From Candidatus Heimdallarchaeum aukensis (GTDB taxonomy: Archaea > Asgardarchaeota > Heimdallarchaeia > Heimdallarchaeales > Heimdallarchaeaceae), in assembly GCA_021513695.1 (NCBI GenBank), contig CP084166.1, forward strand, positions 1,568,001-1,632,000: a DNA stretch of 64,000 nt, written 5' to 3'. Made by a program: the position numbers and the translations under genes. Below the pieces are notes generated by a model. That model worked only from the letters and a program-made list of their open reading frames with translations, did not search any database and had not been told where the DNA came from. Shown here piece after piece: positions 10,272 to 63,545 of the stretch (positions are counted from its first letter, which is position 1; each line of letters starts with the position of its first letter).

Positions 10272-11138
10272 TTACACAAAAACTGATCGTAATTTGTAAA
10301 CTATACTAGAAAATGAAAGAACTTTTTTTCTACGAAGAATAGCTTCTCTTGTAAAAAGATCTACATAAGCAAAAAAACCATTTACTAAAGGACCAGGATT
10401 AATAAGCATAATATTTTTTTCAGTTTGAATAGCTTGTATTTCATGAATGTGCCCACAAAAAACAAAATCAAACAATAATGATTCAAAAATAAAAGAGGTG
10501 ATTTCTTGATTTCCTGCGTGATAGTTTCTTGAAGGAATTAGATCAATATGTGTATTCTTGGGGGGTTCATGGAAAAGACCAATAAATAGTTTATTTTCAT
10601 TCTTCTTTTTAAGAAGAAGAGCTTGTTCTTTTAGTTTAAGTAAATCTTTTCTTATAATGCTTATGTCTCTATTTGTAGGTGTTTGAACAGATGAGTATTC
10701 AGCTTTTTGGCAATACCCATACCCTAAAACAATAAATTTGTCATGCTCAACAATGCTTGATTCGATAAAAATTAAATTCGAATTTTGTTCTGTTTGTTTT
10801 TTAATATATGTAATTACTTCAGGAATATCTGTATTTCCGTGTGTAAAGAACACAGGTTTATTTAATCCACGCAGAAAATTCAGAATTTTCTTGGTTGTTT
10901 GTAATTGAAAATCAACAAATTCCTTATATTTTTCTCCAAATACAAGTTCCATGTATTTTTTTCTACTAATTCTTTTATATTTGATAATTGATTGAAAAAT
11001 AAGAGGTATACAAATAGTTCCTGCTATGTCTCCAGCAATAAAAATCACATCAACCTCTTCTAGTTCCTTTCTTAATCGTCTTAATAACTTTAATGACCCA
11101 TGAATATCCGCTATAACGATAGCTTTCAACTTACTCAC
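10272..11138 (-). CDS. Calcineurin-like metallophosphoesterase
   Basis: VIADIHGS...IFIAGDI... and later GHIHE metal-ligand motifs. Overlaps the hutH 3' end by 8 bp, suggesting co-transcription. Confidence 0.6.
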   Translation of the reverse strand: MSKLKAIVIADIHGSLKLLRRLRKELEEVDVIFIAGDIAGTICIPLIFQSIIKYKRISRKKYMELVFGEKYKEFVDFQLQTTKKILNFLRGLNKPVFFTHGNTDIPEVITYIKKQTEQNSNLIFIESSIVEHDKFIVLGYGYCQKAEYSSVQTPTNRDISIIRKDLLKLKEQALLLKKKNENKLFIGLFHEPPKNTHIDLIPSRNYHAGNQEITSFIFESLLFDFVFCGHIHEIQAIQTEKNIMLINPGPLVNGFFAYVDLFTREAILRRKKVLSFSSIVYKLRSVFV

Positions 11139-12663
11139 CAGAAATTGAGAGTAATTCTTCTTCTGTAAATTTTAGTAGGCCCCCTGTCTTTACTTGTTCA
11201 ATAACCCAATATACATCCTCATCATATCGTCTATCATTAGCAATAGGCGGTATTTTTTTTCTGATGTGATTATAGATTTTCATGTTCACTGGTGAGAGTT
11301 TTCTCTCTCCTCGAAATTCCAAAGCTTGACATGCAGTAAAAATTTCTATCGCAATCATTTGTGAGACTATATCTCTTATTTTGTAAACTTTTTTACTAGA
11401 AGTTAACCCCATACTTACATGGTCTTCTTGATCAGCTGAAACAGGTGTATTATCTATCGATGCAGGAGTGCTTAAAATTTTATTTTCTGCTGATAAAGCA
11501 GCGTCAGCATATTGAAGAATCATCAATCCAGAATTTAATCCTGGTTTCCCTGTTAAAAAGGCTGGAAGACCAGAAAGCGCGGTATTTAATAATTGATTAA
11601 CTCTTCTTTCAGATATTGTTCCTAATTCGGTTAAAGCAATAGAAAGAAAATCCATGACTAAAGAAATTGGTTCTCCATGAAAATTTCCACCAGAGAAAGC
11701 ATGGTTATGGTTTACTGAAATTAAAGGATTGTCAGTAGCAGAATTCATTTCTACTTCTACTACACTCTTTACATATCTAATAGTATCGAGAACTGCCCCA
11801 TGAACTTGAGGAGAACAACGTATAGAATAGGGATCTTGTACTCTCGGAGCTTTAATGTGTTCAATATCACTTCCTTTTATAAGTTTTAACACTGTATCAG
11901 CAAAGTCAGATTGCCCCTTATGTTTTCTATTTTGCATGATGAAAGGAGAAAAAGCATCAGTATTTCCATGAAGTGCTTCTAAAACTAAAGCAACCGCTAT
12001 AGCTGAATGTTTCAAAATATTTAAAGAATCATAAATCGTATGAGCTGCAAAAGAAGTAAGAACATGAGTACCATTAACTAAGGAAAGACCTTCTTTTGAT
12101 ACAGGTGAGATAGGTTCTAGCCCCAACTTTGCTAGAATTTCTTTGCCTGTTAAAATTTGATCATTGTATTTTACTTTTCCTTCTCCTATTAACACACTAG
12201 CAATATAGGATAAAGGAGCGAGATCACCACTTGCGCCTAAAGAACCAATGCTAGGAACCAGAGGAATAACGTTATTATTTACTAAATCCACATAAAGCTC
12301 GACAGTGGATAAACGTATTCCACTGCTACCTTTACAATAAGAATTAATCGCAATAACCATAGCTCCTTTAACTATTTCATCAGGAAGAAACTCACCAAAA
12401 CTTATGCTATGAGAACGAATAATATTTTCTTGTAACTGTGATTGCTCATTAATTGAAATAAGTACATTTGCTAGTTTTCCAAAACCTGTTGAGACACCGT
12501 AGATGGGATCGTTTTCGGCGATTAAATTTTCAATTGCATTACGTGATTCTCTTATTCTTTCTTTACTGTCATCACTTAGTCGGATTTTATATCCTTGTCT
12601 TGTTATTTTGATTAAATCGTTTATATTTAGAGAGTTTCCATTAAGGACAATAAAATTGCTCAT
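11131..12663 (-). CDS. hutH: Histidine ammonia-lyase
   Basis: 510 aa aromatic amino acid lyase. MIO-forming ASG triad in the GSLGASGDLAPLSY context, plus overall HAL/PAL family conservation. Confidence 0.9.
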   Translation of the reverse strand: MSNFIVLNGNSLNINDLIKITRQGYKIRLSDDSKERIRESRNAIENLIAENDPIYGVSTGFGKLANVLISINEQSQLQENIIRSHSISFGEFLPDEIVKGAMVIAINSYCKGSSGIRLSTVELYVDLVNNNVIPLVPSIGSLGASGDLAPLSYIASVLIGEGKVKYNDQILTGKEILAKLGLEPISPVSKEGLSLVNGTHVLTSFAAHTIYDSLNILKHSAIAVALVLEALHGNTDAFSPFIMQNRKHKGQSDFADTVLKLIKGSDIEHIKAPRVQDPYSIRCSPQVHGAVLDTIRYVKSVVEVEMNSATDNPLISVNHNHAFSGGNFHGEPISLVMDFLSIALTELGTISERRVNQLLNTALSGLPAFLTGKPGLNSGLMILQYADAALSAENKILSTPASIDNTPVSADQEDHVSMGLTSSKKVYKIRDIVSQMIAIEIFTACQALEFRGERKLSPVNMKIYNHIRKKIPPIANDRRYDEDVYWVIEQVKTGGLLKFTEEELLSISGE

Positions 12664-13022
12664 GGTAATTACTTTATCAAAATAAATTTAAGAATTTGGA
12701 TAGACGGATGAAATTTAAGCAAAGAAAAATTGTACGATAATCGAAGGTTCTGTAAAAATAAAAAATAGGGTATTACACCCTACTTCTTTCTAACTGGTAG
12801 AGGAACTAATGAAGAAACTCTATGCTTATAATCTTTATATGCGCTGTATTTAGAAAGCAGTCTATTCTCCATAAGATACTTTTTTACGTAAAAAACTAAA
12901 TTTTTAGTTTGTGGAGTTATTAGACTAATAACAACCAGAAACACATTTGCATTAATAAAGAATATACAATATTATGGGTGTCACAACTTTTCCGCTGTCT
13001 TTATATATTCAATTATCATTTA

Positions 13023-13210
13023 TCTAGTGTCTTGAGCTAGATGCTTAAAGACGTAGGTTTCATTCCTACGACACCCGGTCTTCCCTGTGGGAGTGATGAG
13101 TGCCCGGGATCAGGAGATGAACCCCTTAGAGAACTCACTTAAGACTGTGTCTTTCATGTTCTCTTAACCCAGTCTTCACAACTTTCGCTATGTTTGTTGA
13201 CTGGTTGGGT
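13023..13210. ncRNA. Candidate structured non-coding RNA (GC-rich multi-hairpin island, class unknown)
   Basis: The intergenic region 12664..13314 has no ORF. It contains 4-5 consecutive stem-loops: tctag/ctaga (13023-13041), cgtagg/cctacg (13052-13070), cccgg/ccggg with nested ttccc/gggag (13074-13108), and cttagagaac/gttctcttaa with nested aagac/gtctt (13125-13167). GUGAUGA and CUGA C/D-box-like words are present. Local GC is well above the genome background. Confidence 0.3.
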
Positions 13211-13314
13211 AGAGTCCTGAAGAAATTACGTAAAATTTCAACTCATAAGAGGGATGCTAATAAATATAAACAGCAGCGAAATAGAGATTGGCCCAATAAT
13301 CATCCACCAATTGC

Positions 13315-14049
13315 TTAAAGAAGAACCAAGTGCGAAGAAATATAATCCCCACCAGAAGGATATTTCTCCAAAATAGTTAGGATGGCGAGAATACTTCCAA
13401 AGTCCGATATAATTATTTCTCCTTCTCTTCTTCTTTTAGCAAAAACTCTTCGTTGTTCATCAGAGATTGCTTCAATCGCAATTGCAGCTATTGTGATAAC
13501 TATGCCTATGATATCTAGATAATTAAATTGTTCATTTTTAACGTTCACGGAAGGATAAATCGATAAACAACCTAGAAAAACTAGGACAGTGGGAAGCATC
13601 TGTAATCCTGAAAGATTAATCAATTCAAAAATAAACCTCGAGTGTTTTTTTCGATACAAAGTATATCTCCAATCTTCATCAGTTAAACCTTTCCATCCTC
13701 TTAACCAATTAACTGTTAATCTAATTCCCCAAATAGAAACAAGGATAGCAACAATTAACGGTTTTAAATAGATATCATTCGAGTTATTAATAAATAGCCA
13801 ATAAAAAGCGATAAATATAGGAATAACACTCCAGTAAGGGTCGTATACACTTGTATTTGCAAAGAGAACACTGAACAAGTAGACAATTATAGTAGCCAAT
13901 ACATCAGCAATAAAAGTTCTCCAAATAATGGAGATTGACCAATTAACATAATGAAGAAAACTCCAACCAGCAAAAATTGCTATGGCATAGACTAAAAAAA
14001 CACTCAATAATGAGGTCCAGTATTTAGTTTTAATAACCTTCAAACTCAT
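13315..14049 (-). CDS. DUF1295-like (steroid 5-alpha-reductase/ICMT-like) membrane protein
   Basis: Multi-pass membrane protein with the motifs SVYDPYWSVIPIF and EDWRY, which recur in the DUF1295 family. Confidence 0.45.
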   Translation of the reverse strand: MSLKVIKTKYWTSLLSVFLVYAIAIFAGWSFLHYVNWSISIIWRTFIADVLATIIVYLFSVLFANTSVYDPYWSVIPIFIAFYWLFINNSNDIYLKPLIVAILVSIWGIRLTVNWLRGWKGLTDEDWRYTLYRKKHSRFIFELINLSGLQMLPTVLVFLGCLSIYPSVNVKNEQFNYLDIIGIVITIAAIAIEAISDEQRRVFAKRRREGEIIISDFGSILAILTILEKYPSGGDYISSHLVLL

Positions 14050-18328: not shown

Positions 18329-18634
18329 TTAGAAGATTAATAGAATAGCTACAAGTAGACCATAAATTGCTACTGCTTCAATAAGCACGATGAACAAGAA
18401 GATTTTACCAAAAATCTCTGGTTTTTCAACTAATGCGCCTATACCAGCCGAACCAGCTGAACCCATTCCGAGTGCACTACCGATTCCTGCTAGACCTATT
18501 GCTAGAGCAGCGCCTATAGGTCTCATATCTCCTTCTTCACCTAGAGGAATTTCTGCAGCGAATGTACCTTTTGCGGTTATAATGATAAGCGCAACAATTG
18601 CTAGTAGTCCAATAATCAGATCATTTTTTTTCAT
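18329..18634 (-). CDS. atpK: A/V-type ATPase proteolipid subunit c (K)
   Basis: The ORF track starts at 18730, but the probable start is the internal Met (MKKNDLIIGLLAIV...). GAALAIGLAGIGSALGMGSAGSAGIGA glycine-zipper helix and a second helix with the conserved carboxylate (LIEAVAIYGLLVAILL). Confidence 0.8.
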   Translation of the reverse strand: MKKNDLIIGLLAIVALIIITAKGTFAAEIPLGEEGDMRPIGAALAIGLAGIGSALGMGSAGSAGIGALVEKPEIFGKIFLFIVLIEAVAIYGLLVAILLIF

Positions 18635-18834: not shown

Positions 18835-19452
18835 GTGAGTAAAATGTTTGGAAACTTTATGAGATGGTTATTAGGAACTCAAAAATCAAGTAGAGACCAT
18901 ATAGTAAACCTTAAACTAACTATTCGCAGACTAGAAAGAGCTCAAAGGAAACTGGAGAGAGATGAATCAAGAATACAACTAAAAATGCGAACAGCTATTC
19001 AGCGTGGTGATTTAGAAGGTGCCCGTCTTTATGCTACAGATATTGTTCGTTCTCGTAAGTGGGTTTTAGGTTACCAGCGTTTAGTTTCTCGTATTAATGG
19101 TCTTATTTTTAAACTAGAACGAGCTGATTCTGCTGCTAACTTGGCAGCTGAAATGCATTCTATTGCAGGAGCTCTTCGACAAGCTAACGCTCAATTAAAT
19201 GTTCCTGATTTAGATCATGTTATTCAAGACATGGAACGTAGTATTGATGGAATTGAGGATTCAACTGAAACAATTGAAGATGGAATTGATGATCTTCTTA
19301 TTGCTGATACCGACCCAGCTGAAGTCGATAGGTTAATTGACCAAACAGCTACAGAGATGGGTGTTAGTGTAGGAGGAGAACTCCCTTCAGTAAGCGCTGT
19401 TGCAACAGACGATCTCGAGGAAGAGATTCAAAAATTAAGGAAAAAAGAGTAA
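18835..19452 (+). CDS. ESCRT-III, Vps2/24/46-like (Snf7 family)
   Basis: 205 aa. Basic N-terminal helical hairpin (RRLERAQRKLERDESRIQLKMRTAIQRGDLEGARLYA) and acidic C-terminal half, the CHMP2/3-like pattern. Immediately upstream of a second Snf7 paralog and Vps4. Confidence 0.8.
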   Translation: MSKMFGNFMRWLLGTQKSSRDHIVNLKLTIRRLERAQRKLERDESRIQLKMRTAIQRGDLEGARLYATDIVRSRKWVLGYQRLVSRINGLIFKLERADSAANLAAEMHSIAGALRQANAQLNVPDLDHVIQDMERSIDGIEDSTETIEDGIDDLLIADTDPAEVDRLIDQTATEMGVSVGGELPSVSAVATDDLEEEIQKLRKKE

Positions 19453-19467
19453 ATATGAGGTGTTTAT

Positions 19468-20127
19468 ATGGGTATGAAAAACTGGTTATTTGGAACCAAA
19501 CGCAAGGATGATGCTGAAGCTTTAGCTACACTCAAAGCTCAGATCAATCGATATGAGCACGAGTCCCGCAATTTAGAACGTCAAGCTGATGAACAAAAAT
19601 CTTTAGCTGCTAAGATGTTAAAGTCGGGTAATAAAGCTGGAGCTAAACAAGCTCTTAAGCGTCGAGCTATTTATATGAAACGTTTAAATCAGGTTCAAAA
19701 TATGCTAATGAACCTTCAGAGTCAGATTGATAGTATTCAAACTGCAACCTCTACTGTTGAAACAGTAAAGGCAATGGAGTTAGGTACGAAAGTTGTCAAG
19801 ACGAAGATGCAAGAAGTTGATGTAGAGAAAACTGAACGTGTAATGGATGAAGTTATGAGTCAACGTGATGAAATTGAAATGATGACAGAAGCTTTATCTG
19901 ATACTGCACTAAGTGAGAGCATTTTAGATTACGAAGATGATGTCGCAATTGATGATCAACTTGCTCAATTAGAAGCCGAGATGAATCTTGGTAAAACAGA
20001 AGAATTACCAGATCTTTCAGATCTTCCTTCAACTCCATCAGAAAAACCGACTGAAAAAGAAGAAGATACTTCTGACCTTGAAGCCGAATTAGCTTCTCTT
20101 AAGAAGAAGTTAAGTGATGACAAATAA
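19468..20127 (+). CDS. ESCRT-III, Vps20/32/60-like (Snf7 family)
   Basis: 219 aa. AKQALKRRAIYMKRLNQ Snf7-like helix, acidic C-terminus with a terminal MIM-like DLEAELASLKKKL. Confidence 0.8.
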   Translation: MGMKNWLFGTKRKDDAEALATLKAQINRYEHESRNLERQADEQKSLAAKMLKSGNKAGAKQALKRRAIYMKRLNQVQNMLMNLQSQIDSIQTATSTVETVKAMELGTKVVKTKMQEVDVEKTERVMDEVMSQRDEIEMMTEALSDTALSESILDYEDDVAIDDQLAQLEAEMNLGKTEELPDLSDLPSTPSEKPTEKEEDTSDLEAELASLKKKLSDDK

Positions 20128-20254
20128 TAATAATCAAATTCTTTTTTCAATTCTTTTTTTCATCATTTTAGAAACGAACAGTTTTTTAACGATAATGATG
20201 TTACTAGTTTAGTAATTCAATTAATAGGATTATTCAGTTAGAGAGGTTAAAGAA

Positions 20255-21400
20255 TTGAGCGCGCAAGGACTGATTGAACACGCACGTAAATTTGCAAAAA
20301 AAGCTTATGAACTTGATAAGGCAAAACAATACAATGAGGCAATACCACTTTATCTCGACGCTGCAGAAGCTCTAATGAAAGCAATAAAATTTGAAAGAAA
20401 TCCACAAGTGGGAAAGACATTAAAGAAAAAAGCAGAGATGTACATTGAACGAGCAAAAGATCTAAAAGAAATTATTGAGAAAAAAGCTGAAAAGGGGGCA
20501 GAAACAGGGTCAGACGAAGAATCTGATAAATTAGAAGGAGCAATTAGCGATATCATAGTTACAGAAAAGCCATCAGTTACTTTGGATGATATTGCAGGAC
20601 TAGAAGAAGCAAAACGGAATCTTCGAGAAGCAATAGTGTTACCTCTTGTAAGACCAGACTTATTTAGTGGTGCAAGAAGACCATGGAAAGGGATTTTACT
20701 TTTTGGCCCCCCAGGATGTGGAAAAACTCTTTTAGCAAAAGCAACAGCTGCAGAAGTAGAAGCTACGTTTTTTAATGTTAGTGCGTCCGCGGTTATATCC
20801 AAATGGTTAGGAGAATCTGAAAAATTAGTTAATACATTATTTAAAATTGCTCGTGAAAGGCAACCAAGTATAATTTTCATAGATGAAGTAGATGCTCTTA
20901 CCGGAGCACGTGGTGGCGAGCATGATGCTATGCGCAGAGTTAAAACTGAATTATTAACTTCTATGGATGGTTTATCTAGCTCTGCTCAAGATCGTCTTGT
21001 AGTTATTGGGGCTACTAACCTTCCTGAGTCTATTGATGGAGCTTTTCGCCGTCGTTTTGAGCGTCGTATTTACATTAAGCTTCCAGATTTTGAAGCGCGT
21101 AAAGCTATCTTTCAACTAAATGTCAAAGGAGTGGACTTAGCTCCCGATGTTGATTTTGAATCTTTAGCAGAGATTACAGAAGGTTATTCTGGAGCAGATA
21201 TTGCTATGGTTTGTCGCGATGCTATTATGACTCCTATTCGTGAACTTGATTTATCAGGAGACATTCATGACCCCAATATTAAAGCCAGACCAGTTACACA
21301 AAAAGATTTTCTTGAGTCTATTCAGTCAGTTAATCCTTCTGTAAGTGCAGAAGAAATCGAGAAATATGAGAAATGGAATGAAGAATTTGGTTCAGCGTAA
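20255..21400 (+). CDS. vps4: Vps4 AAA+ ATPase (MIT domain + AAA module)
   Basis: N-terminal MIT three-helix bundle (AKKAYELDKAKQYNEAIPLYLDAAEALMKA). Walker A GILLFGPPGCGKTLLAKA, Walker B IIFIDEVDAL, second region of homology, and C-terminal Vps4 helix. Confidence 0.95.
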   Translation: MSAQGLIEHARKFAKKAYELDKAKQYNEAIPLYLDAAEALMKAIKFERNPQVGKTLKKKAEMYIERAKDLKEIIEKKAEKGAETGSDEESDKLEGAISDIIVTEKPSVTLDDIAGLEEAKRNLREAIVLPLVRPDLFSGARRPWKGILLFGPPGCGKTLLAKATAAEVEATFFNVSASAVISKWLGESEKLVNTLFKIARERQPSIIFIDEVDALTGARGGEHDAMRRVKTELLTSMDGLSSSAQDRLVVIGATNLPESIDGAFRRRFERRIYIKLPDFEARKAIFQLNVKGVDLAPDVDFESLAEITEGYSGADIAMVCRDAIMTPIRELDLSGDIHDPNIKARPVTQKDFLESIQSVNPSVSAEEIEKYEKWNEEFGSA

Positions 21401-21412
21401 AAGGGTGTTTTT

Positions 21413-21705
21413 ATGATTTACCTTTTTACGTAAGTTTTTCGCACTCGGTCTTTCAAGGGAGAAAACAGGAGTTTCATCACTTGATAACTCAACCACAACA
21501 TACAATGAAAGGAAACGTGGTTAAGACAGACGTCATACACGAATCGTGGGAATCATAAAGAAGGAAAAGAAAAAAGTAAGAAAGGAGAAAAGAAAGGAGG
21601 TTATCTCCTTCTTTATTCTACTTTCTTTTCTTTCCTTCACTCCACGAGAGACGAAAAAACAAACAAATAATCCTCTAACAAGAGAGAATGTAAGTTTATA
21701 TTTTC
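21413..21705 (-). ncRNA. Candidate TnpB omega-RNA (reRNA) scaffold / right-end region
   Basis: Non-coding segment between the tnpB stop and the element terminus. Blocks are conserved with the paralog (e.g. acatacaatgaa...gacagacRtcatacacgaatcgtgggaatcataaagaag and ttccttcactccacgagagac) despite indels elsewhere. Confidence 0.4.
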
Positions 21706-21707
21706 AT

Positions 21708-23161
21708 CTACTGGGGCTGCAACCAATGGCTGAGCCCTTGGCAAACAGTGAAATGAGTGAGACTAAATTTACGACCAGTGAGTAGATCAGTAATAGTTGT
21801 TGCACGGGGGCGGAAAAGAGAACTAAGGAGCAGACGAGCGATATTCATTGCTCCTGTTAGATCAGAGTGGAAGGTGTAATTGCAAGAGGGACAATAAACT
21901 AACCCTCTAACGGGGCGGGTAACTTTTTTTCCGCAACGGGCACAGTGAGATGATGTTCCTCTTTCCTCTATCGTCAGAATTCGGTGAGAGGGAAAACCTC
22001 TAAGTATTAGTGCACGACGGATAAAAGAAAGAACAAGAGCATAGTTCCACTGGTGAAGTTTTCTTCGTGACTTGCGATTAGTTACTCCCTTATTTTTTTC
22101 TCGTCGAATGTATTTAGGATAACCTATAACAACGAAAAGATTATAGATCCGAGCATAAACCTCTATTGTCCACACGATAGCACTTACAAATTGATTGATA
22201 TACGCTCGTCTGACGTTTCTATACCTCCGACGGAGACGTTTGAGAAAACGGTAAACTTGGTGTTTTTTACCCGATTGGTCGTTTAAAGCTGCTTTCCTCT
22301 GAAGACGGGAAAGTTTGAGTTTATATCGATGATTAACTTTATTCCACTGTTTGGTATACTAGAACTTTATTTCTTTACTTGTTACCTTCTTTTTCGGGGT
22401 CAGTAGCACTTCTACCGCAGGAATGTTTATCCCTAGATCTATTCCCAGCACAGCTGGGGGAAGAAAAGAAGAGTCAGAAGAAAGATTATCTCCCTGAAGG
22501 AAAGAAGAAGGAAGAACTTTTGAATGAAAATATATCCACCATTCACGTGTAGAACGTTTGTATCTTATTTCTAAACTTTTTACTCTTTCTTTAATTCTTT
22601 TTGATGAAACTCGCTCATCTCTAAAGGTAACCACAATCGCTGATGAAAACGTGTTTTTCTTTTCCACCTATCTAACGAGTCTCGTATTCCTACCCACCAA
22701 CGAGAAAGAGTGTTATTCTTATCTTTTGGTAGATGGACGAGGATGAACCTTTTTTTATTAATTAATTGTCTTCTTGCTCTCTTTCTTGGAGGACGAGTAT
22801 TGTTAGGTCTATATCCTTGCTCATATAGTTGCACAGCTATATCTCTACATTCTTGAAACTCATCGTGAGAACAATAGGGAAACATTTTCTTCATATCGTG
22901 AGGAACAGTCGTTCTTCTTTCTTCCTCTTTTTTTACTCTCGAGGTCGTTAATGTCAATTCGTCTAATTTTCCTTTATGTACTTTTATTTTCCCTTCTTTT
23001 GCTTTAATACCTATTTTTTTTCTGTTATGGTGTATAATTCTCACATACTTTTCTATTATTCTAGTATCTCTCCCCGTTATTCTCCTTAACTTTTCTTTTT
23101 TTCTCGTCGTCAATACTTCATTCTTCACTCTCACCTTTAACGTTTTGACGACGTCCTCCAT
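21708..23161 (-). pseudogene. tnpB: tnpB pseudogene (frameshifted; fragments 22580-23161, 22359-22667, 21708-22175)
   Basis: Three ORF fragments in different frames together cover the 484-aa intact paralog, from the N-terminus MEDVVKTLKVRVKNEV... to the C-terminus ...HCARCGKKV...CPSCNYTFHSDLTGAMNIA. At least two frameshifts were seen. Confidence 0.75.
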
Positions 23162-23240
23162 CCTTTTTTTCTCCTCTTATTTTACTCTCTCTTTTTTTCT
23201 ATTTTTTTCTCTTCTTTTACTTCTTCTCTTCCTCATTATA

Positions 23241-23260
23241 CTTTTTTTCCCTATAAAAAG
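23241..23260 (-). promoter_or_regulatory. Candidate TATA box for tnpB inside the left end (reads TTTTTATAGGG on the coding strand)
   Basis: The motif ctttttttccctataaaaag is conserved in both paralogous elements (also 34681-34698). A related tttttttcctatataaa lies upstream of the third tnpB (63559-63578). Confidence 0.3.
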
Positions 23261-23329
23261 TCCTTTCTTTTCTTTTTTTCTCATTATTCTTCCTCAATTT
23301 TTATATAAAGTTATGTAAAATAGTAAATC

Positions 23330-24130
23330 ATGGCTACAATGGAAAAACAAAAAGATAATGAATTTGAGCAAATTGATCTTGAAAAATTGAAAGAAGAAAA
23401 GAAAATATCAGAAGATAAGCTTAAGCTTATTGAAGCCAGTATTAAGGGATTAAAAGTTTCAGAAGAAGAACTGAAGTCCACGAAACCTATTGTTAGAGAA
23501 GAAGCAAGATTAGAACTAACAGAAGACACAAAGACGAAGCTAATTAAAGAATTTGAGCAAAGTTTACCTGATTGGGTTAACAAGCCTTGGATGTATGTCA
23601 CCCCAAAAAAGGCAAATCAAGTTGAGTCTTGGTTAGACAGTTGGTCATCAGTCATGCTTGATTATACAAAGAAATTTGTTATTCATATTGTTAATGTCAA
23701 TTCTCTTAGAGAAACTTATCCTTTTTGTAATAAGAAAATAAGAAAAGAACTTACCATCGATCAAATTCGTGATATCATCGATTTTCTTGAAACAAAGGGT
23801 TTTGCTCTTTGGATAAATGATAGGACAAAATTCTTTGAGAAACTTTTTGCAAAGATACTTGGAAAACCTTTAACAAAAAAGATCCGTGCAAAGATAGAAT
23901 GGAAAACAAAAGAAGAATTTGCTGAAGATTTACTTAAATGGATGATTGAAACCGGTAGAGTAGTTGAAGTTCACTCTTTATATGATTTAACAAAATATGA
24001 ACAACCCTGGTCTTCTTTACCTTCAGATGATTTAATCCATGTATGCAATTTACTCGTAGAAAAAGGTTCTGCTAGATGGTTAAATAGAGAAAGAACTATA
24101 ATTTCCTTTGAAGCAACAAAGGTATTCTAA
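23330..24130 (+). CDS. ESCRT-II Vps25-like protein (tandem winged helix) with an N-terminal charged coiled-coil extension
   Basis: PFCNKKIRKELTIDQIRDIIDFLETKGFALWINDRTKFFEKLF matches the Vps25 WH1 pattern (LF.N..I.R.L....I..IL..L...G.AEW). The second WH is GRVVEVHSLYDL...LIHVCNLLVEKGSARWLN. The annotated ATG overlaps the IS terminus; the real start may be the next Met. Confidence 0.65.
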   Translation: MATMEKQKDNEFEQIDLEKLKEEKKISEDKLKLIEASIKGLKVSEEELKSTKPIVREEARLELTEDTKTKLIKEFEQSLPDWVNKPWMYVTPKKANQVESWLDSWSSVMLDYTKKFVIHIVNVNSLRETYPFCNKKIRKELTIDQIRDIIDFLETKGFALWINDRTKFFEKLFAKILGKPLTKKIRAKIEWKTKEEFAEDLLKWMIETGRVVEVHSLYDLTKYEQPWSSLPSDDLIHVCNLLVEKGSARWLNRERTIISFEATKVF

Positions 24131-25009: not shown

Positions 25010-26014
25010 ATGTCTAAAGAAGGTAGATATGCGAGACAGACTCTCATACCTGGTTGGAATCAGAAGAAACTCAACAAATCAACAGTTATTATTGTTGGTG
25101 TGGGAGCAATTGGATCATATGTATCAACGATTTTAGCTTCTTCAGGAGTAAAAAATCTCATTCTAATTGATTTTGATACTATTGAAATCTCTAATCTTAA
25201 TCGTCAATTACTATTTCGGGATGGAGATATTGGAAAATCCAAATCTGAAATTGCAGCTATGCGATTATCGGAACTAAATCCAGATATTAACATTACCTTT
25301 CATCATAAGAAGATGCAAGATTTACCTATTTCTATTTACAAAAAAGCAGATGTCATTGTGGCTTGTCTTGATACCTTCATTGGAAGAAGATGGATAAATT
25401 CACTTGCTGTAAAAATAAACAAACCTTTAATTTTAGGTGGAATGTTTGCTTTTCTAGGAGATGTTCAAGTTGTTTTACCAAAAAAAACTGCTTGCTTTGA
25501 TTGTCAACCTTTAGTTGCAGAAAGAGAACTTGCGCAAGCTTGTACTCCATTCGGAGAAGAAAGGAAGAAAAACAGAGAAGAAAAAGAGGATGAAGCGAAA
25601 TTACCATCTGTAGCCACATTGTCTGCGATTATCGGAGGAATTATGGCACAAGAAGCCTTAAAACTTCTTTTAGACATAGGTGAACCAATCAAGAATTATC
25701 TTTTCTATGATGGATTACATAATGCAACAACAATAATTGAACTTGCAAGAAGAAAAAAAGATTGTCCAACTTGTGGAGAACTATATGAGTTGGAACAAGT
25801 CGAATTTGTGGTAAATAAAGATAATACCGTCAAAGAACTATTAATCCAATTAGGTTTACAATTCGGACTTGAGAGCCCAGACATTATGATTAAAGGGAGG
25901 ATACTCCCTCACGATTCAAAAATCCAAGAACTAGGTATAAAAAATAACATGAAGGTTTTTGTAATGGACAAAAATTTAGCTTCACCAATCAAGTTAAAGT
26001 TAAAGATTGAGTGA
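25010..26014 (+). CDS. E1-like ubiquitin-activating enzyme (ThiF/MoeB/UBA family) with a C-terminal beta-grasp-like tail
   Basis: Rossmann nucleotide motif VGVGAIGSYV, ...LIDFDTIEISNLNRQ..., zinc knuckles CFDCQ and CPTCG, and a candidate catalytic Cys in a QACTP context. Confidence 0.85.
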   Translation: MSKEGRYARQTLIPGWNQKKLNKSTVIIVGVGAIGSYVSTILASSGVKNLILIDFDTIEISNLNRQLLFRDGDIGKSKSEIAAMRLSELNPDINITFHHKKMQDLPISIYKKADVIVACLDTFIGRRWINSLAVKINKPLILGGMFAFLGDVQVVLPKKTACFDCQPLVAERELAQACTPFGEERKKNREEKEDEAKLPSVATLSAIIGGIMAQEALKLLLDIGEPIKNYLFYDGLHNATTIIELARRKKDCPTCGELYELEQVEFVVNKDNTVKELLIQLGLQFGLESPDIMIKGRILPHDSKIQELGIKNNMKVFVMDKNLASPIKLKLKIE

Positions 26015-27168: not shown

Positions 27169-28638
27169 CTACATATCTTTTAAAATTCGTCTAAATTCGT
27201 TTAACCATCTTGATGCTTGGAATTCTAGTTTTTCACAATCGTCTTCATTTATTATTTCACTTGGTTTATAATTTGAAAGAATGTCTTTCCAGTTTTTCAT
27301 ATCGCTGAGCATCCAATGATCTTGCGGAATAGATGGAAACGAGTGCAAAACATGAATTAGCTCTTCTACGTCAGCCAACAGCAAATCAGCTCGTGCGACT
27401 GATTTAAGCCTTGTTAGATCAATTAATTCAATTGCAGCTGAAACAAAATCAGCTGTTTTTACAGGCATTTTCTTTAAGGATTCAAATGGTATCATTTCAA
27501 CATCTTTAGTTCCAGTTCCTTCAGCCATTTGTAGCAATCTCATTCCTTTGTCAAATCTATTTAGCAGATTTTCTTGCTCTATAAACGAATCGAGATCAAA
27601 TCCACCTAATTGTTCCAGTTTCATTCTTGTTTTGAAAACTGTTCTTATTAGTGATCTTAACTGCTTTTTATATGCAACTTGCTCAATCTCACCATTTTCA
27701 TACCCTCTCGCTAAATTATCTAATGTCACTATTGCTGCATATAAATCAGCTTCAAAATCTAATCTTTTATCTAAATCACTAGGCATTACTTGTCCTCCAA
27801 CATTTTCTAAATAAGCTAATTTTTTATTTGTCTTATAACTTTCCACTGAATATTTTCTATAAAGTTTCAAGTAATCAACACTTGAAAGATCTCCATCATC
27901 AAATTTCTCATTTAATAGCTCTAATAAGTCATTAGATGCTCTTGAACTTGCTTTTAAATCATCGGTTACAGAAATTGTAAGTTCTTTTAATGAATGTGAA
28001 GGCTCAGCTTTCTTGATTAGAGCAGCTCTTTTTTCCTCAATTTGTTTATTTAGTTCGTTTATCTGCTGCTGATACGCTTCTATCTCTGCTTCAATAGTAC
28101 TTTTTTCTATCGATGTTTGACTCCGTTCATTAAAGGATGGTACACTTTGCTTACGTACAGTGTGACGTGAAACTGTTCTTGGTTTCATCGGTTGAACTAC
28201 AGATCTAGACACACTCCTAGCTGTAGACATATGCTTTGTTCTTAATGGTCTTGCAGGAACATTAGCAAATAATCGCCGAATATCATTTATAACTTGATAA
28301 ATATGATAGCGTGGTTTCCATTGAGCGAGTATTTGCAAACTAAGAAAGTCATTGTCGTCAACATTAGGATGATTTACTTTAGGAGTAATTTCAACTTGAG
28401 GAGGAATTCTTGGGAACTCTGGAGAGATATATATTGTAGCATAAACAGTTATCTTCGTTCCTTGAATTATCCCTACAGGGCCTTTCCACTTTCTTAAATT
28501 GCCTCCTACTGGCTCAAATCCTTCAACATTATTATAAATTAATTGCATCTCATTAGCAAGAATCTGATCTAGAGAAATTTGTCTCACCTTTACTCTTCTA
28601 TTATTGTTATAAACTTCAAAGTTTAAAAAATATTGCAT
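27169..28638 (-). CDS. ESCRT-I Vps23/Tsg101-like protein with N-terminal UEV (inactive E2) domain
   Basis: N-terminal UBC fold with an HPN motif (KVNHPNVDDNDF...LQILAQWKPRYHIYQVINDIRRLF) but no catalytic Cys after it, which makes it a UEV domain. Followed by a Pro/Ser-rich linker, a long coiled-coil stalk and a C-terminal helical domain. Confidence 0.7.
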   Translation of the reverse strand: MQYFLNFEVYNNNRRVKVRQISLDQILANEMQLIYNNVEGFEPVGGNLRKWKGPVGIIQGTKITVYATIYISPEFPRIPPQVEITPKVNHPNVDDNDFLSLQILAQWKPRYHIYQVINDIRRLFANVPARPLRTKHMSTARSVSRSVVQPMKPRTVSRHTVRKQSVPSFNERSQTSIEKSTIEAEIEAYQQQINELNKQIEEKRAALIKKAEPSHSLKELTISVTDDLKASSRASNDLLELLNEKFDDGDLSSVDYLKLYRKYSVESYKTNKKLAYLENVGGQVMPSDLDKRLDFEADLYAAIVTLDNLARGYENGEIEQVAYKKQLRSLIRTVFKTRMKLEQLGGFDLDSFIEQENLLNRFDKGMRLLQMAEGTGTKDVEMIPFESLKKMPVKTADFVSAAIELIDLTRLKSVARADLLLADVEELIHVLHSFPSIPQDHWMLSDMKNWKDILSNYKPSEIINEDDCEKLEFQASRWLNEFRRILKDM

Positions 28639-32867: not shown

Positions 32868-32912
32868 AATAACAAAGAATTACTACATAAAACATAAATG
32901 TTTTCTTTGGAC

Positions 32913-33171
32913 ATGATTTACTTTTTTCCGTAAGTTTTTCGCACTCGGTCTTTCAAGAGAGAAAAACAATAAAATAGCTTAATCGCTTGGTAACTCAACC
33001 TAAACATACAATGAATGGGAGTGGTTGAGACAGACATCATACACGAATCGTGGGAATCATAAAGAAGAAAGGAAGAAAAAAGTAAAACCTTTTTTCTTTT
33101 TTCCTTCACTCCACGAGAGACAAAAAAGAAAGACTAACTCTAACACAAGAGGATAGAATTAGTTTCTTTTC
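32913..33171 (-). ncRNA. Candidate TnpB omega-RNA scaffold / right-end region
   Basis: Conserved with 21413-21705 (see there). Lies 3' of the tnpB stop and runs to the element terminus. Confidence 0.4.
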
Positions 33172-33173
33172 GT

Positions 33174-34628
33174 CTACTGGGGCTGCAACCAATGGCTGAG
33201 CCCTCGGCAAACAGTGAAATGAGTGAGACTGAATTTCTGACCAGTGAGGTAATCAGTAATGGTGTTACATCGAGGACGGAAAAGATATCCAAGGAACTTA
33301 CGAGCGATATTCATTCCCCTTGTTAGATCAGAATGAAAAGTGTAGTTACAGGAAGAACAATGAACTAACCCTCTAACGGGACGGGAAACTTTCCTCCCGC
33401 AACGAGCACAGTGAGAAGATGTCCCTCTTTCCTCTATTGTTAATATTCGGTGAGATTCAAAGCCTCGAAGTATAAGTGCCCGACGGAGAAGAGAGAGAAC
33501 AAGAGAAAAATTCCACTGATGAAGTTTTCTGCGAAACTTACGATTACTTTTTTCTTTTTCTTTTCCTTCTCGAACATGTTTGGGGTAACCTACAACAACG
33601 AAAAGGTCATACACTTGTGCATAACTCTCTATCGTCTGCACAACATCGCTTATAAATTGGTGAATATACGCGCGTTTAACGTTTCTATACCTCCGACGAA
33701 GAAGACCAAGAAAACGGTAAACTTGGTGCTTTTTACCTAACTGGTCGTTTAAAGCTGCTTTCCTCTGAAGACGGGAAAGTTTGAGTTTATATCTATGATT
33801 GATTCTATTCCACTGTTTAGTATACCAGAATTTTATCTCTTTTTTTGTTAACTTCTTTTTAGGAGTCAGTAACACTCCTGCAGCAGGAATGTTTATCCCT
33901 AGATCTATTCCCAGCACAGCTGGGGGAAGAGAAGAAGAATTATCTCCTTGACTTGTGAGATAAAAGGAAGAAGGAGGAAGAACTTTTAATTGGAAATACA
34001 CCCACCATTCACGTGTAGAACGTTTGTATCTTAGTTCTAGACTTTTCACCCTCCCTTTCTTTAACTCTTTCTGGTGAAAATCGCTCATCTCTAAAGGTAA
34101 CCACAACTTCTGATGATAAGGTGTCTTTCTCTTCCAGGTATCTAACGAGTCTCTTATTCCTACCCACCAACGAGTAAGTGTATTATTCTTCTCTTTTGGT
34201 AGATGGACAAGAATGAACCTTTTTCCATTAATTAATTGCCTTCTTGCTCTCTTTATTGGAGGACGAGTAGGACGGGGTCTATACCCTTGTTCATATAATT
34301 GTACAGCTATATCTCTACACTCTTGGAATTCATTGTGAGAACAATAGGGAAACATTTTCTTCAAGTCGTGAGGAACAGTCTTTCTCCTCTCTTCTTCTTT
34401 TACTCTTGAAGTAGTCAGTGTCAACTCGTCTAATTTTCCTCTATGTACTCTTATTTTCCCTTTTTTTGTTCTTATACTTATTTTTCTTCTGTTGTGGTGT
34501 ATAATTCTCACATATTTTTCTATTATTCTCGTGTCTCTCCCCGTTATTCTCCTTAATCTTTCCTTTTTTCTCGTCGTCAATACCTCATTCTTTATTCTCA
34601 CTTTTAATGTTTTGACGACGTCCTCCAT
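33174..34628 (-). CDS. tnpB: TnpB (RuvC-like RNA-guided nuclease family, IS200/IS605 OrfB)
   Basis: RuvC-I LGIDLG, C-terminal zinc finger HCARCGRKV...CSSCNYTF and RuvC-III HSDLTRGMNIA. The canonical RuvC-II glutamate is not evident: the sequence reads LFVVVGYPK where the third TnpB in the window has AIVIEEIS. Confidence 0.85.
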   Translation of the reverse strand: MEDVVKTLKVRIKNEVLTTRKKERLRRITGRDTRIIEKYVRIIHHNRRKISIRTKKGKIRVHRGKLDELTLTTSRVKEEERRKTVPHDLKKMFPYCSHNEFQECRDIAVQLYEQGYRPRPTRPPIKRARRQLINGKRFILVHLPKEKNNTLTRWWVGIRDSLDTWKRKTPYHQKLWLPLEMSDFHQKELKKGRVKSLELRYKRSTREWWVYFQLKVLPPSSFYLTSQGDNSSSLPPAVLGIDLGINIPAAGVLLTPKKKLTKKEIKFWYTKQWNRINHRYKLKLSRLQRKAALNDQLGKKHQVYRFLGLLRRRYRNVKRAYIHQFISDVVQTIESYAQVYDLFVVVGYPKHVREGKEKEKSNRKFRRKLHQWNFSLVLSLLRRALILRGFESHRILTIEERGTSSHCARCGRKVSRPVRGLVHCSSCNYTFHSDLTRGMNIARKFLGYLFRPRCNTITDYLTGQKFSLTHFTVCRGLSHWLQPQ

Positions 34629-34947
34629 CTTTCTTTCCTCTTTTCTTATTCTAAACTTTTTTCTTCTCCTTTAATTATACTTTTTTTCCCTATAAAAATT
34701 CCTCACTTTTTCTTCTCTCCCTCCCTCTTCCTTCCTTCTTTCCTTTCTTTTTTCGTTGCACTCTTCCTCAATTTTTATAAATTTACGTAAAAAAGTAAGT
34801 CATTTATTATGCTTTTCTTTAAAGTTTTTACAGTAAGTGCTGAATGTTTCTATTTCATTTATCCCTGAAAGAGGACAATAGTATAAAAAAGTGTAAAAAA
34901 CAATAATTAAGAAAATATTTATAGTTTAACAAAAATAAAAAACATCA

Positions 34948-44867: not shown

Positions 44868-46004
44868 ATGGAAGAAATAGTATCTGATAAACCGTTGGTA
44901 ATAGACAACGGAACAGGATTCACAAAAAATGGATTCGCAGGAGAAGATCAACCAAGAAGTGTGTTCCCAACGCTAATAGGTTATCCAAAATACCAAATAA
45001 TAATGACTGATGTTGAACATTACGTAAGAGAATACTATATAGGAGAAGAAGCACTAAACTTGAGAGGAGTGCTCAAACTAGTATACCCAATAGAACATGG
45101 TCAAATAGGTGACTGGGACGCCATGGAAAGAATCTGGCATTACACCTTCTATAACGACCTTAGAGTTAATCCTAACGAGCATCCTATTTTGCTCACCGAA
45201 CCTCCTCTTAACAAGAATGTCAACAAGGAAAAGATGGCCGAATTAATGTTTGATACCTTTAATGTTCCTGCTATGTATATTAGCATGCAAGCTATTCTTT
45301 CGCTTTATGCTTCTGGTCGTACTACAGGTATTGTAGTCGACAGTGGTGATGGTGTTACACACATCGTTCCTGTTTACGAAGGTTTTGCAATTAGTCATGC
45401 TATTCGCAGAGCTGATATTGGTGGTCGTGATATTACTGACTATCTACGTCGTCTATTAAGACAAAGAGGATATTCCTTAACCAGCAGTGCAGAACGAGAA
45501 ATTGTTCGTGACATTAAGGAACGTCTTTGTTACGTAGCTTTAGATCCTGAAAAAGAACTCAAACTTGCTGAGAAAGTTTCTGGTATGGAAAAGACTTACA
45601 CCTTGCCAGATGGTGAAACTCTAAGCATTGGCGCTGAGCGCTTTATGGCTCCTGAATTGTTCTTCAATCCTGGTGCCATCGGTTCTGAAGAACTTCCTTT
45701 GGATGAACAGATCTATCAAGCTATCACTGATTGTGATGTCGATCTTCGTAGAGATCTTTATTCCAACATTGTTCTTTCTGGTGGATCCACCATGTTCCCA
45801 GGTTTGAAGGAGAGATTACACAAGGAACTTACTGAACTAGTCCCCGAAACTATGGAGGTTAAGATTATCGCTCCACCAGAACGTCGTTACAGTGTTTGGA
45901 TAGGAGGAAGCATCCTCAGTAGTCTTAAGACCTTTACCAAACTTTGGGTGACTAAGAAAGAGTATAAAGAAACTGGTCCTACCGCAGTTTATCGTTGTAT
46001 CTAA
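44868..46004 (+). CDS. Actin (Asgard lokiactin-type, eukaryote-like)
   Basis: 378 aa. [32 protein letters not shown], ...[47 protein letters not shown], ...[10 protein letters not shown] and C-terminal ...[16 protein letters not shown] are near-canonical actin motifs. Confidence 0.95.
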
Positions 46005-62246: not shown

Positions 62247-63545
62247 TCACGAAGGAGAGTTTAGATTAGGCGAACCGGTCATAGAGCCAGAGGAGAGAGT
62301 TGATAAACCCTCGACCACGGAAACTGGAAAAAAGAACTTTTTCCGCTCACGTGGGACAGGAAAATAAGAAAAAAAGGAAGAAGAGAGAGGGAGAGGAAGA
62401 GAACCAAAAAAGAGAAGAGAAAGGTTGCGAGAGGCGTTGCGGTCAGAGTGAACTTCAAAACCACAAGAAACGCAACGAAAAAGGTCACGAGTGACACGGG
62501 AGGAAGGAGAAACGTGACCGCAACGAGAGCAACGTTGACTGGTATAATGAGGGGGGACAGGAAGAACAGGAATATGCTTTTCTTCAGCAAGAGAGGTCAA
62601 GAAAGAGAGGAAAAAGCGATAAGACCAGCGGTTGAGAGAGCGACGAATACGTTCTCTTCCTCTAAAATTCTTTTTAGTCCATTTTTTTCTTATTTTACTA
62701 ATTTCTTCAATTACTATCGCAGAGCGTGTAACTACTGCTAAATCTACAATCTCGTGAGCTATTTGCTCACATCGGGTTTTGTTATAATTTTTTTCTTTAT
62801 TTTTCAATCTTTTTAACGCACGCCGTGCTTTTTCACTTCCTTTATCAGCATACGATTGTAGCTTTCTTCTTCTTTCATTAAACTTATGTTGTTTCCAGGC
62901 AAGATCTTTTCCGAGGTAACGTTCAATTAGAGTAAAAGAGGGATGATTAAGTGTTATTGCGGCAGCTATCTTTCTACCTACGTCTACTCCTATCGTTCCT
63001 TCTACTTGTTGAGGAGGAAAAAGGTTAAGTTCTTTACGTAAAATTATGTGCTCTACCCACTTTCTTTCCCGTTTAAAGACTTTACAACTATGCTCTTTCC
63101 ATCCTTCTCTGCGGTATGCTTCTACTCTTCTCCATCCTCCATCTAGTTTGATAGGTATAGCTATCCTTTCTTTCATCGGAGAAATAGCTAAAACAGGGTT
63201 CCCTCTCTCTGTTTCTTTTATTCCTCCACTCCTGGGAAAGTTGAACTCCAACGGTAAATTATCGAACTTTTTCACTTTCCTTGCCGCATAAACTCTTCTC
63301 TGTACCGCTTCTTGCACTTGACTGTGTAACTTCACATATTTGAACCTCTTATATACTAAATGATGGAACTCTTTTCCTGATTTCGCTTTTTCCTTGAACA
63401 CTATTATTTTATTTGCCATCTCTGTCGCTTTTTTCTGTGCTCTCTGCATGTATGCTCTTTTTCTTCTACTCGGGAGAATATTCACTTTTACTGTTTTTTC
63501 TTTCCACTTCCTTTTCTTTCCTTTTCTTCTCCCTTTCGTTTTCAT
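62247..63545 (-). CDS. tnpB: TnpB (second, unrelated family; IS200/IS605 OrfB-type RuvC-like nuclease)
   Basis: RuvC-I IGVDVGRK, RuvC-II AIVIEEIS, zinc finger CSRCGHVS...CVSCGFEV, RuvC-III HSDRNASRN. The low-complexity C-terminal tail (62247-62430) may be non-coding omega-RNA sequence read through in frame. Confidence 0.8.
   Translation of the reverse strand: MKTKGRRKGKKRKWKEKTVKVNILPSRRKRAYMQRAQKKATEMANKIIVFKEKAKSGKEFHHLVYKRFKYVKLHSQVQEAVQRRVYAARKVKKFDNLPLEFNFPRSGGIKETERGNPVLAISPMKERIAIPIKLDGGWRRVEAYRREGWKEHSCKVFKRERKWVEHIILRKELNLFPPQQVEGTIGVDVGRKIAAAITLNHPSFTLIERYLGKDLAWKQHKFNERRRKLQSYADKGSEKARRALKRLKNKEKNYNKTRCEQIAHEIVDLAVVTRSAIVIEEISKIRKKWTKKNFRGRERIRRSLNRWSYRFFLSFLTSLAEEKHIPVLPVPPHYTSQRCSRCGHVSPSSRVTRDLFRCVSCGFEVHSDRNASRNLSLLFFGSLPLPLSSSFFSYFPVPRERKKFFFPVSVVEGLSTLSSGSMTGSPNLNSPS

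Follow-up and report, generated by a model that had tools for sequence, protein, structure and literature searches.

A probable TnpB guide-RNA scaffold on a 374-bp mini-transposon that splits a membrane-protein gene in a Heimdallarchaeum-like archaeon

Genes and features of the locus

The window, by which we mean the whole 64-kb stretch of DNA analysed here, is marked as belonging to an Asgard archaeon of the Heimdall group by its eukaryotic signature genes. These are dense at 44868-46004, 18835-21400, 25010-26014 and 27169-28638, and among the larger ORFs Pfam identifies actin (E 3e-132), two Snf7/ESCRT-III genes followed by Vps4, a ThiF-type E1 and a UQ_con-VPS28 fusion. The locus treated here has the following genes.

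11131-12663, minus strand: histidine ammonia-lyase gene (hutH), flanking ORF
12780..12872, minus strand: displaced 3′ end of the DUF1295 gene, encoding MENRLLSKYSAYKDYKHRVSSLVPLPVRKK and a stop codon; matches the C-terminus of the homologue P0001 and is contiguous with the gene in the related contig L082
13247..14049, minus strand: 5′ part of the DUF1295 gene (steroid-reductase-like membrane protein), with a 1-nt deletion between 13410 and 13411
13315-14049, minus strand: DUF1295 membrane-protein ORF of 244 aa, flanking ORF, frameshifted

An earlier note, made by reading the sequence, had placed a GC-rich island at 13023-13210 in a 650-bp ORF-free gap between hutH and the membrane-protein gene. 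That gap (12664-13314) does not exist as described: it consists mostly of the broken 3′ part of DUF1295 and a 374-bp insertion, and genuinely intergenic DNA is confined to ∼12664-12779.

DUF1295 homologues are all ∼300 aa long, against 244 aa for the window ORF. The best of them, P0001 (89% identical), runs on as ...IPLMENRLLSKYSVYKDYKHKVSSLVPLPVKKK; in the window the 1-nt deletion at 13410/13411, relative to L082, leads into a shifted frame that continues to ...IPLM, and the absent C-terminus MENRLLSKYSAYKDYKHRVSSLVPLPVRKK with its stop codon is found 370 nt farther along, at 12780-12872. L082, the contig that carries P0001 (93-95% nucleotide identity), has an unbroken 298-aa DUF1295 gene with hutH 118 nt downstream. 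The heptamer CATAAGA (plus strand) is single in L082 and occurs in the window at 12870-12876 and again at 13244-13250. Because the L082 gene is uninterrupted and CATAAGA is single there, we conclude that the window carries a 374-bp insertion, bracketed by the two heptamers.

The frameshifted 244-aa ORF is exactly reproduced in two independent sample assemblies; it is therefore no artefact of a single assembly, and DUF1295 is a pseudogene in this population, disrupted by the transposon. The frameshift itself is independent of the insertion. An inverted repeat, AAAAAATAGGGT/ACCCTACTTCTT, at 12760-12788 overlaps the DUF1295 stop codon and is kept in L082; it may form a terminator-like hairpin separating DUF1295 from hutH.

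Among genome representatives the nearest relative of hutH (64% identity) lies in L002 (CAZEQQ010000034.1, 2639-5530), where a hutI-like amidohydrolase gene and hutH are directly adjacent and divergent. DUF1295 does not lie between these hut genes and is therefore regarded as a variable occupant of the hut locus. Since this nearest relative has no gap upstream of hutH, synteny around hutH in genome contigs is uninformative for the RNA.

The GC-rich island

The island is compositionally distinct, with 53% GC at 13050-13149 against a mean of 32.6%, ∼3 SD higher. It is the only peak of such height outside coding ORFs in the 64-kb window; the remaining comparable peaks are inside ORFs, for example at 18437-18556 in a Gly/Ala-rich proteolipid-like ORF. 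The plus strand of 13029-13244 has a minimum free energy of -66.7 kcal/mol (z = -2.93), a value that 1 of 200 dinucleotide shuffles equals, and in its predicted fold a long-range helix closes off a series of local hairpins. What the earlier note had read from the letters is thus borne out in several respects: the GC enrichment, the chain of hairpins (on the plus strand), the words GUGAUGA (13093-13099) and CUGA (13217-13220), which have 120 nt between them, and the absence of a spanning protein frame. The longest ORF wholly within the insertion is 33 aa.

The classes that the note had offered for the RNA, namely SRP RNA, RNase P RNA and a C/D sRNA precursor, all fail. An Rfam scan of the island gives nothing at the gathering threshold and chance-level matches only at E≤10; the archaeal SRP RNA and RNase P RNA covariance models give no match at either threshold. 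Box C/D sRNAs carry a C box (RUGAUGA) and a D box (CUGA) near both ends, form a terminal stem with a K-turn and are ∼50-70 nt long. In the island the boxes are 120 nt apart and their neighbouring bases are not complementary, and C/D families in Rfam give nothing at E≤10 apart from an unrelated 23-nt sR55 fragment at 13334-13356. We also rejected a tRNA-Sec, suggested by a 6-bp stem with a UUUCAUU loop, since there is no acceptor or T arm and position 37 is a pyrimidine, and an IS110 bridge-RNA-like role, since no k-mer of ≥7 nt is shared between RNA and target beyond AT-rich chance matches.

The sole Rfam match at the gathering threshold anywhere in the window is SNORD36 at 19239-19313 (31.9 bits, E 0.38), inside the Snf7 ORF 18835-19452, and is probably due to chance.

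The mini element and its ends

The insertion has the layout of a small mobile element, with the following parts.

12867..12872, plus strand: left flank CTCCAT, candidate target/TAM; the flank reads TTCTCCAT in both copies of the element
12873..13246, plus strand: mini insertion element, 374 bp, no protein gene; edges ambiguous within CATAAGA
12877..12898, plus strand: left-end motif TACTTTTTTACGTAA with palindrome TTTTTTACGTAAAAAA, common to ISx-1 and ISx-2
12899..12999, plus strand: AT-rich left arm with small palindromes at 12893-12910 and 12916-12932; the part most diverged between copies
13000-13007, plus strand: archaeal TATA-box-like sequence TTTATATA, 22 nt upstream of the RNA-model start at 13029
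13029..13246, plus strand: homologue of an omega-RNA (reRNA) scaffold by covariance model R1, ending ...AACTCAT
13247..13266, plus strand: predicted guide segment AAGAGGGATGCTAATAAATA, flanking DNA, its length assumed from other TnpB systems (PMC10055086; bioRxiv 10.1101/2023.08.09.552727)

The feature of interest extends beyond the 13023-13210 given in the earlier note, the RNA occupying 13029-13246 and the element 12873-13246.

Protein coding was sought throughout the element. All of its open frames, also when concatenated for chimeric ORFs, were without a match in the protein database, as were both 33-aa internal ORFs in exact look-ups, and the element gave no match in BLAST against plasmids and phages or in pattern scans of viral contigs.

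Two TnpB-only elements of ∼1.9 kb lie in the same window, ISx-1 at ∼32911-34805 and ISx-2 at ∼21411-23333, the latter having a tnpB that is decayed and broken into the ORFs 21708-22175 and 22580-23161. Pfam finds the TnpB zinc-ribbon domain in two ORFs, both on the minus strand, 33174-34628 and 62247-63545. The first has annotated homologues in Candidatus Heimdallarchaeum endolithica and aukensis (86-88% identity), whose genomes were described by Wu et al. (PMC8813620) as having multi-copy transposase families; mini elements or guide RNAs were not reported there. The second, a third TnpB-like ORF of 432 aa (PF07282, E 7.5e-19), is 27% identical to the TnpB P0139 discussed below, over the C-terminus only, and has a GC peak at 62423-62542 in its 3′ part. 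A cognate TnpB for the mini scaffold is not present in the window, the third TnpB being remote, and no tnpA gene was seen there.

The ends of the mini element recur in these resident elements. ISx ends read ATGAYTTACYTTTTTNCGTAA.../...GTAARTCAT, and the end motif TTTTTTACGTAA is common to the mini element and the full-length TnpB elements of the window. The 16 nt that follow AAGA in the mini element, TACTTTTTTACGTAAA, recur at the ISx-1 end (34797..34782, 16/16), and a 15-mer of the left end, with ≤2 mismatches allowed, has six matches in the window against 0.81 expected; besides the element's own two palindromic ones these are at or near the ISx-1 and ISx-2 ends. With flanking bases included, ISx reads AT/GAYTTAC...GTAARTC/AT, and the mini element reads AT/AAGATAC...CAACTC/AT in the window and AT/GAAATAC...CAACCTC/AT in its second copy. 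A ...TCAT terminus is common to the mini element and all relatives. Over its last 26 nt the mini element agrees with the ISx right end at 18 of 26 ungapped positions (our own count); since the match is to the tnpB-sense strand of ISx, the plus strand of the mini element corresponds to the tnpB-sense strand. The island sits just upstream of this right end, which is where TnpB elements encode their guide RNA.

Copies and mobility

A second copy was found by a 19-mer scan of JGI metagenomes, in the contig L089 at 647-1018, 96% identical over its full length and at an unrelated locus. The contig has 31% GC and the copy abuts a 220-aa ORF. This was the one true copy; six further 19-mer matches in the JGI metagenomes were rejected as chance matches in high-GC contigs. 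At both loci the left flank is TTCTCCAT and the element ends in ...CTCAT. Only around the window copy is there a perfect 7-nt repeat; the L089 junctions have just (C)AT in common. In Logan contigs of two source samples, those carrying the flanking genes stop 25-40 nt inside the element from both ends, a behaviour typical of repeats in de Bruijn assembly. The empty site in L082, the second locus in L089 and the contig breaks in two samples together give a multi-copy element with insertion polymorphism: the element was inserted after ...CCAT within DUF1295, splitting the gene, and also at a second, unrelated locus. As the identical deletion structure is found at both, the element moved after its tnpB was lost.

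Differences between the two copies are unevenly spread, 13 falling in 12873-12989 (left end included) and three in 12990-13222, so that putative promoter and scaffold are ∼8 times less diverged than the left arm; because only two copies were recovered, the constraint on the RNA that this suggests comes from a post hoc comparison of segments. The three differences within the island are all in predicted unpaired positions.

The probable omega-RNA scaffold

The ISx TnpBs are ∼43% identical to a clade whose RNA matches the island. In the locus of one such 43%-identical TnpB, P0139 (L096), the 3′ flank is colinear with the island, with shared blocks ACCCGG, (G/A)AUGAGU, CCCGGG, GGAGAUGAACCCC, ACUGUGU, UAAYCCCAG, GGUUGGGNAGAGUCCU and terminal AACUCAU, between which the stems have been wholly replaced. 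Three further members of the clade were fetched, P0149, P0144 and P0151. In all four loci (L096, L097, L098 and L099) the homologous region begins ∼20-70 nt before the tnpB stop codon, overlapping it; there is no tnpB within the mini element, though the scaffolds of its homologues overlap that gene.

Transposon ends in this clade could be fixed with the P0151 element, because its five right flanks diverge straight after AACTCAT(G) and its five left flanks end in CC before ATGACTAA, giving CCAT at five loci. This element occupies at least five distinct insertion sites, at each of which CC precedes ATG... and G follows ...CAT. In the loci L099-L107 (JGI samples 33000568xx-33000625xx), which carry an identical P0151 element, the same left flank is found with different right flanks, and the reverse; these mixed pairings suggest chimeric metagenome assembly across a multi-copy element.

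For the four TnpB-linked sequences alone, RNAalifold predicts 72 pairs, 12 of them with compensatory change, in an architecture of a 5′ hairpin, a composite P3, a closing helix GAGGA/UCCUC, a CCC/GGG helix, two internal hairpins and a right-end hairpin. This is the same architecture as was predicted independently for the island, whose helices (all plus strand) are as follows.

13029-13052: P1
13053-13069: P2
13074-13108: P3
13110-13115 with 13215-13220: closing helix
13121-13124 with 13207-13210: CCC/GGG helix
13128-13164, inner stem 13141-13153: P5
13169-13174 with 13199-13204: P6
13222-13239: right-end hairpin

A covariance model, R1, was built only from the 3′ regions of these four TnpB insertion sequences of Heimdall-type archaea and searched against 164 kb, comprising the window and 13 loci. 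It matches the plus strand of the window at 13029-13246 over its full length with 48.6 bits and E 1.2e-12, E-values for this model being rough by the tool's own statement. The other match is the second copy of the mini element (L089 800-1018, plus strand, 42.4 bits), and there is nothing else in the 164 kb. The 3′ end of the window match, 13246, is the insertion boundary that the empty L082 site had set independently.

Pairing in the alignment of all six sequences reaches 94.9% of cells, where slid partners give 34-50%, and 24 pairs are changed on both sides, against 3-6 when slid; none of 500 shuffles reaches the observed values, counts that carry the tool's stated caveats for model-fitted alignments. 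Within the mini element a whole stem is swapped (CACCUCC/GGAGGUG to AGAGAAC/GUUCUCU), a C-G pair of the inner stem becomes G-C and a G-C pair of the closing helix becomes C-G. Two parts are reduced: the parental helix 11 is drastically shortened and the upper stem of P3 is smaller. We take these model-based results to show that the island RNA is the structural homologue of the region spanning the tnpB 3′ end to the right end in Asgard relatives. As for the two words mentioned in the earlier note, GUGAUGA is a piece of the omega-RNA's conserved (G/A)AUGAGU internal loop and CUGA a piece of its closing helix, on the 3′ strand. The family is not represented in Rfam, in which the parent region in L096 likewise has no match.

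The earlier view of the island as a stable structured RNA is therefore supported, by covariation and the covariance-model match, for a multi-helix RNA on the plus strand.

The scaffold of the ISx elements themselves is less close. Strong structure marks their 3′ non-coding regions (z = -4.2), including a hairpin that covaries against the H. endolithica copy in L094; R1 gives only 10 bits on the ISx 3′ region, and an nhmmer profile of the ISx 3′ regions had no significant match in the mini element (E ∼14). On sequence grounds the element looks chimeric, with ISx-like end motifs and a scaffold of the P0139 clade; it is either a recombinant or the descendant of an unsampled parent that has both.

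The TATA-box-like TTTATATA stands at the distance from the RNA that is expected of an archaeal promoter, and we infer that it acts as one. It has only 10 occurrences on both strands of the window (128 kb) and is identical in the window and L089 copies. Further occurrences precede the thermosome gene and the third tnpB (ORF 62247-63545), in the latter case 24 nt ahead of the start codon, and the left-end region of ISx-2 also has the word. Full-length relatives have no such box ahead of the scaffold, which there lies within the tnpB transcript. No T-run terminator is present in the sequence directly past the right end.

Comparison with known systems

The RNA resembles the omega-RNAs of TnpB systems of the IS200/IS605 and IS607 groups (ISDra2, ISGst, ISXfa1) in its multi-stem scaffold; that of the full-length relatives overlaps the tnpB 3′ end and stops exactly at the right end. 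Since a scaffold of this type is oriented toward the right end, flanking DNA would become the guide. The conserved CCAT beside the left end is TAM-like, as in TnpB systems. Unlike those omega-RNAs, the mini scaffold has no tnpB upstream and has its own TATA box, it lacks a sequence-level match to curated Rfam families, and it is long: 218 nt, with parents of 275-289 nt, against ∼130-150 nt for ISDra2 and ISXfa1 (bioRxiv 10.1101/2023.08.09.552727).

A close parallel is the PATE of Geobacillus stearothermophilus (PMC10055086), which is likewise reduced to its two ends, left and right, and a guide scaffold, without protein genes, would need TnpA and TnpB in trans, and has ends common to full-length elements of the same genome. 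Meers et al. state that such gene-less PATE elements ‘often encode omega-RNAs’ and that TnpB is needed in trans (PMC10055086). The mini element differs in its Asgard host, in its archaeal-type putative promoter, in ends that look like inverted repeats, each bordered by (C)AT(G), and not like the clearly asymmetric left-end and right-end hairpins, and in the affinities of its parts, the end motifs resembling those of one TnpB lineage (ISx) and the scaffold that of another (the P0139 clade).

Several traits recall IS607. Short palindromic flanks are found on both sides; relatives have subterminal direct repeats in both ends (TTCCGAC twice in the P0151 element, CCCCAC- and CCAC-type in L096); and the first right-flank base is a fixed G at 5 of 5 loci, similar to the published behaviour of IS607 (bioRxiv 10.1101/2023.08.09.552727). 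A serine recombinase gene of resolvase type adjoins none of the copies that we examined, and no Y1 gene was seen.

Elements of the IS200/IS605 type, moved by a Y1 TnpA, have no inverted repeats or target duplication, carry asymmetric subterminal hairpins and insert 3′ of a fixed 4-5-nt target, and IS607, with a resolvase-type serine TnpA, recombines at matching dinucleotides and has subterminal repeats. A CCAT left flank and a terminal TCAT would suit IS200/IS605, with which clear inverted repeats and a constrained first right-flank base are less in keeping. Judged from their sequence, inverted-repeat ends flanked by (C)AT(G) would be no worse a fit for serine recombination of the IS607 type than for IS200/IS605 peel-and-paste. 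Archaeal MITEs and the SMN1-type elements of Sulfolobus are also small and gene-less, share ends with resident IS and disrupt genes. To our knowledge they have not been described with a guide-RNA scaffold and promoter of their own; the scaffold and putative promoter set the mini element apart from them.

Alternative explanations

In our judgement the island is very probably a TnpB-type omega-RNA (reRNA) scaffold on a 374-bp non-autonomous, tnpB-less derivative of a TnpB insertion sequence, similar to PATEs. The best reading of its parts is that it retains a left end, a putative TATA promoter, a complete scaffold and a right end (...AACTCAT), tnpB having been lost. The most serious competitor, which we hold to be possible but a good deal less probable, is that the element is a dead internal-deletion derivative whose scaffold is silent and at most passive cargo. 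Such decay would suit the lack of a cognate tnpB or tnpA in the window, the mere two copies found, the much shortened helix 11 and the reduced upper stem of P3. It sits poorly with the same deletion structure at two unrelated loci, which implies movement after tnpB loss, with the compensatory changes by which all other helices still pair, with a promoter and scaffold ∼8 times less diverged than the left arm, and with a correctly spaced TATA box.

Were the element instead a cut-and-paste MITE of a DDE transposase, with CATAAGA as a 7-bp target duplication and the island as unrelated cargo, the perfect direct repeat around the window copy would be explained, and the ends of related elements do resemble terminal inverted repeats. 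We consider this very unlikely, given that the L089 junctions share only (C)AT, that ISx-1, ISx-2 and the five P0151-element loci lack a 7-bp duplication and show only (C)AT(G), and that homology ties the cargo to TnpB elements, in their tnpB 3′ region and right end. Scarcely credible is a free-standing cellular RNA gene (SRP RNA, RNase P RNA, a C/D or H/ACA precursor or a novel housekeeping RNA): a GC-rich structured island with a TATA box and GUGAUGA and CUGA words might invite it, yet there is no Rfam family at the gathering threshold or at E≤10 and no tRNA by ARAGORN, the island is missing at the orthologous locus of a 93-95% identical relative and has a copy at an unrelated one, it is homologous to transposon ends, and the box-like words, 120 nt apart, lack a terminal stem. 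We give as little credence to an intron in the DUF1295 mRNA (group I, group II or bulge-helix-bulge) whose splicing would restore the frame. The ORF is interrupted precisely and the downstream piece of the gene is intact, but the conserved RNA is on the strand opposite DUF1295, the junctions, inspected by eye, fit neither 5′ GUGYG nor U/omega-G boundaries, DUF1295 is frameshifted anyway in two samples, the L089 copy has a different context and no Rfam intron family matches.

Proposed mechanism and significance

In bacterial IS200/IS605 elements the omega-RNA passes the right end so that flanking DNA serves as the guide, a vacant site with its TAM is cut, and recombination restores the element (PMC10055086). 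By analogy, if the element is the tnpB-less TnpB derivative that we favour, its RNA would be transcribed from ∼13029 past the right end at 13246 into AAGAGGGATGC..., the flank becoming the guide. TnpB from a full-length element elsewhere in the genome would bind the scaffold RNA in trans and could then cut alleles without the insertion, in which CCAT stands beside the guide match (CCAT-AAGAGGG..., as in the L082 allele), and repair from the occupied copy would restore the element. A TnpA transposase, likewise acting in trans, would move it.

A more far-reaching version, to which we assign a small chance, is that the element is a modular ‘guide-RNA parasite’ that combines ISx-type ends, the scaffold of another clade and its own promoter and hijacks two proteins, or else that its RNA has been co-opted as a stand-alone guide with a role for the host. 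If true, either reading would place a natural guide and its nuclease on separate mobile units, in the archaea closest to eukaryotes.

For annotation, the supposed gap is no regulatory DNA of the hut genes. Because the guide scaffold sits on a gene-splitting mini-transposon, the island is a known kind of selfish element and no housekeeping RNA; an apparent novel structured RNA gene has become a predicted TnpB guide scaffold, with a putative promoter, on a gene-less mini-transposon of a Heimdallarchaeum-like archaeon. We did not find a description of such an RNA family for Asgard archaea in the literature, and a covariance-supported structure is now given for this omega-RNA family missing from Rfam. 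For a TnpB clade that is abundant in the archaea nearest to eukaryotes, the analysis also supplies the exact transposon boundaries and CCAT as candidate TAM. On this reading guide-only hitchhiker elements, so far noted in bacteria, occur in Asgard archaea too.
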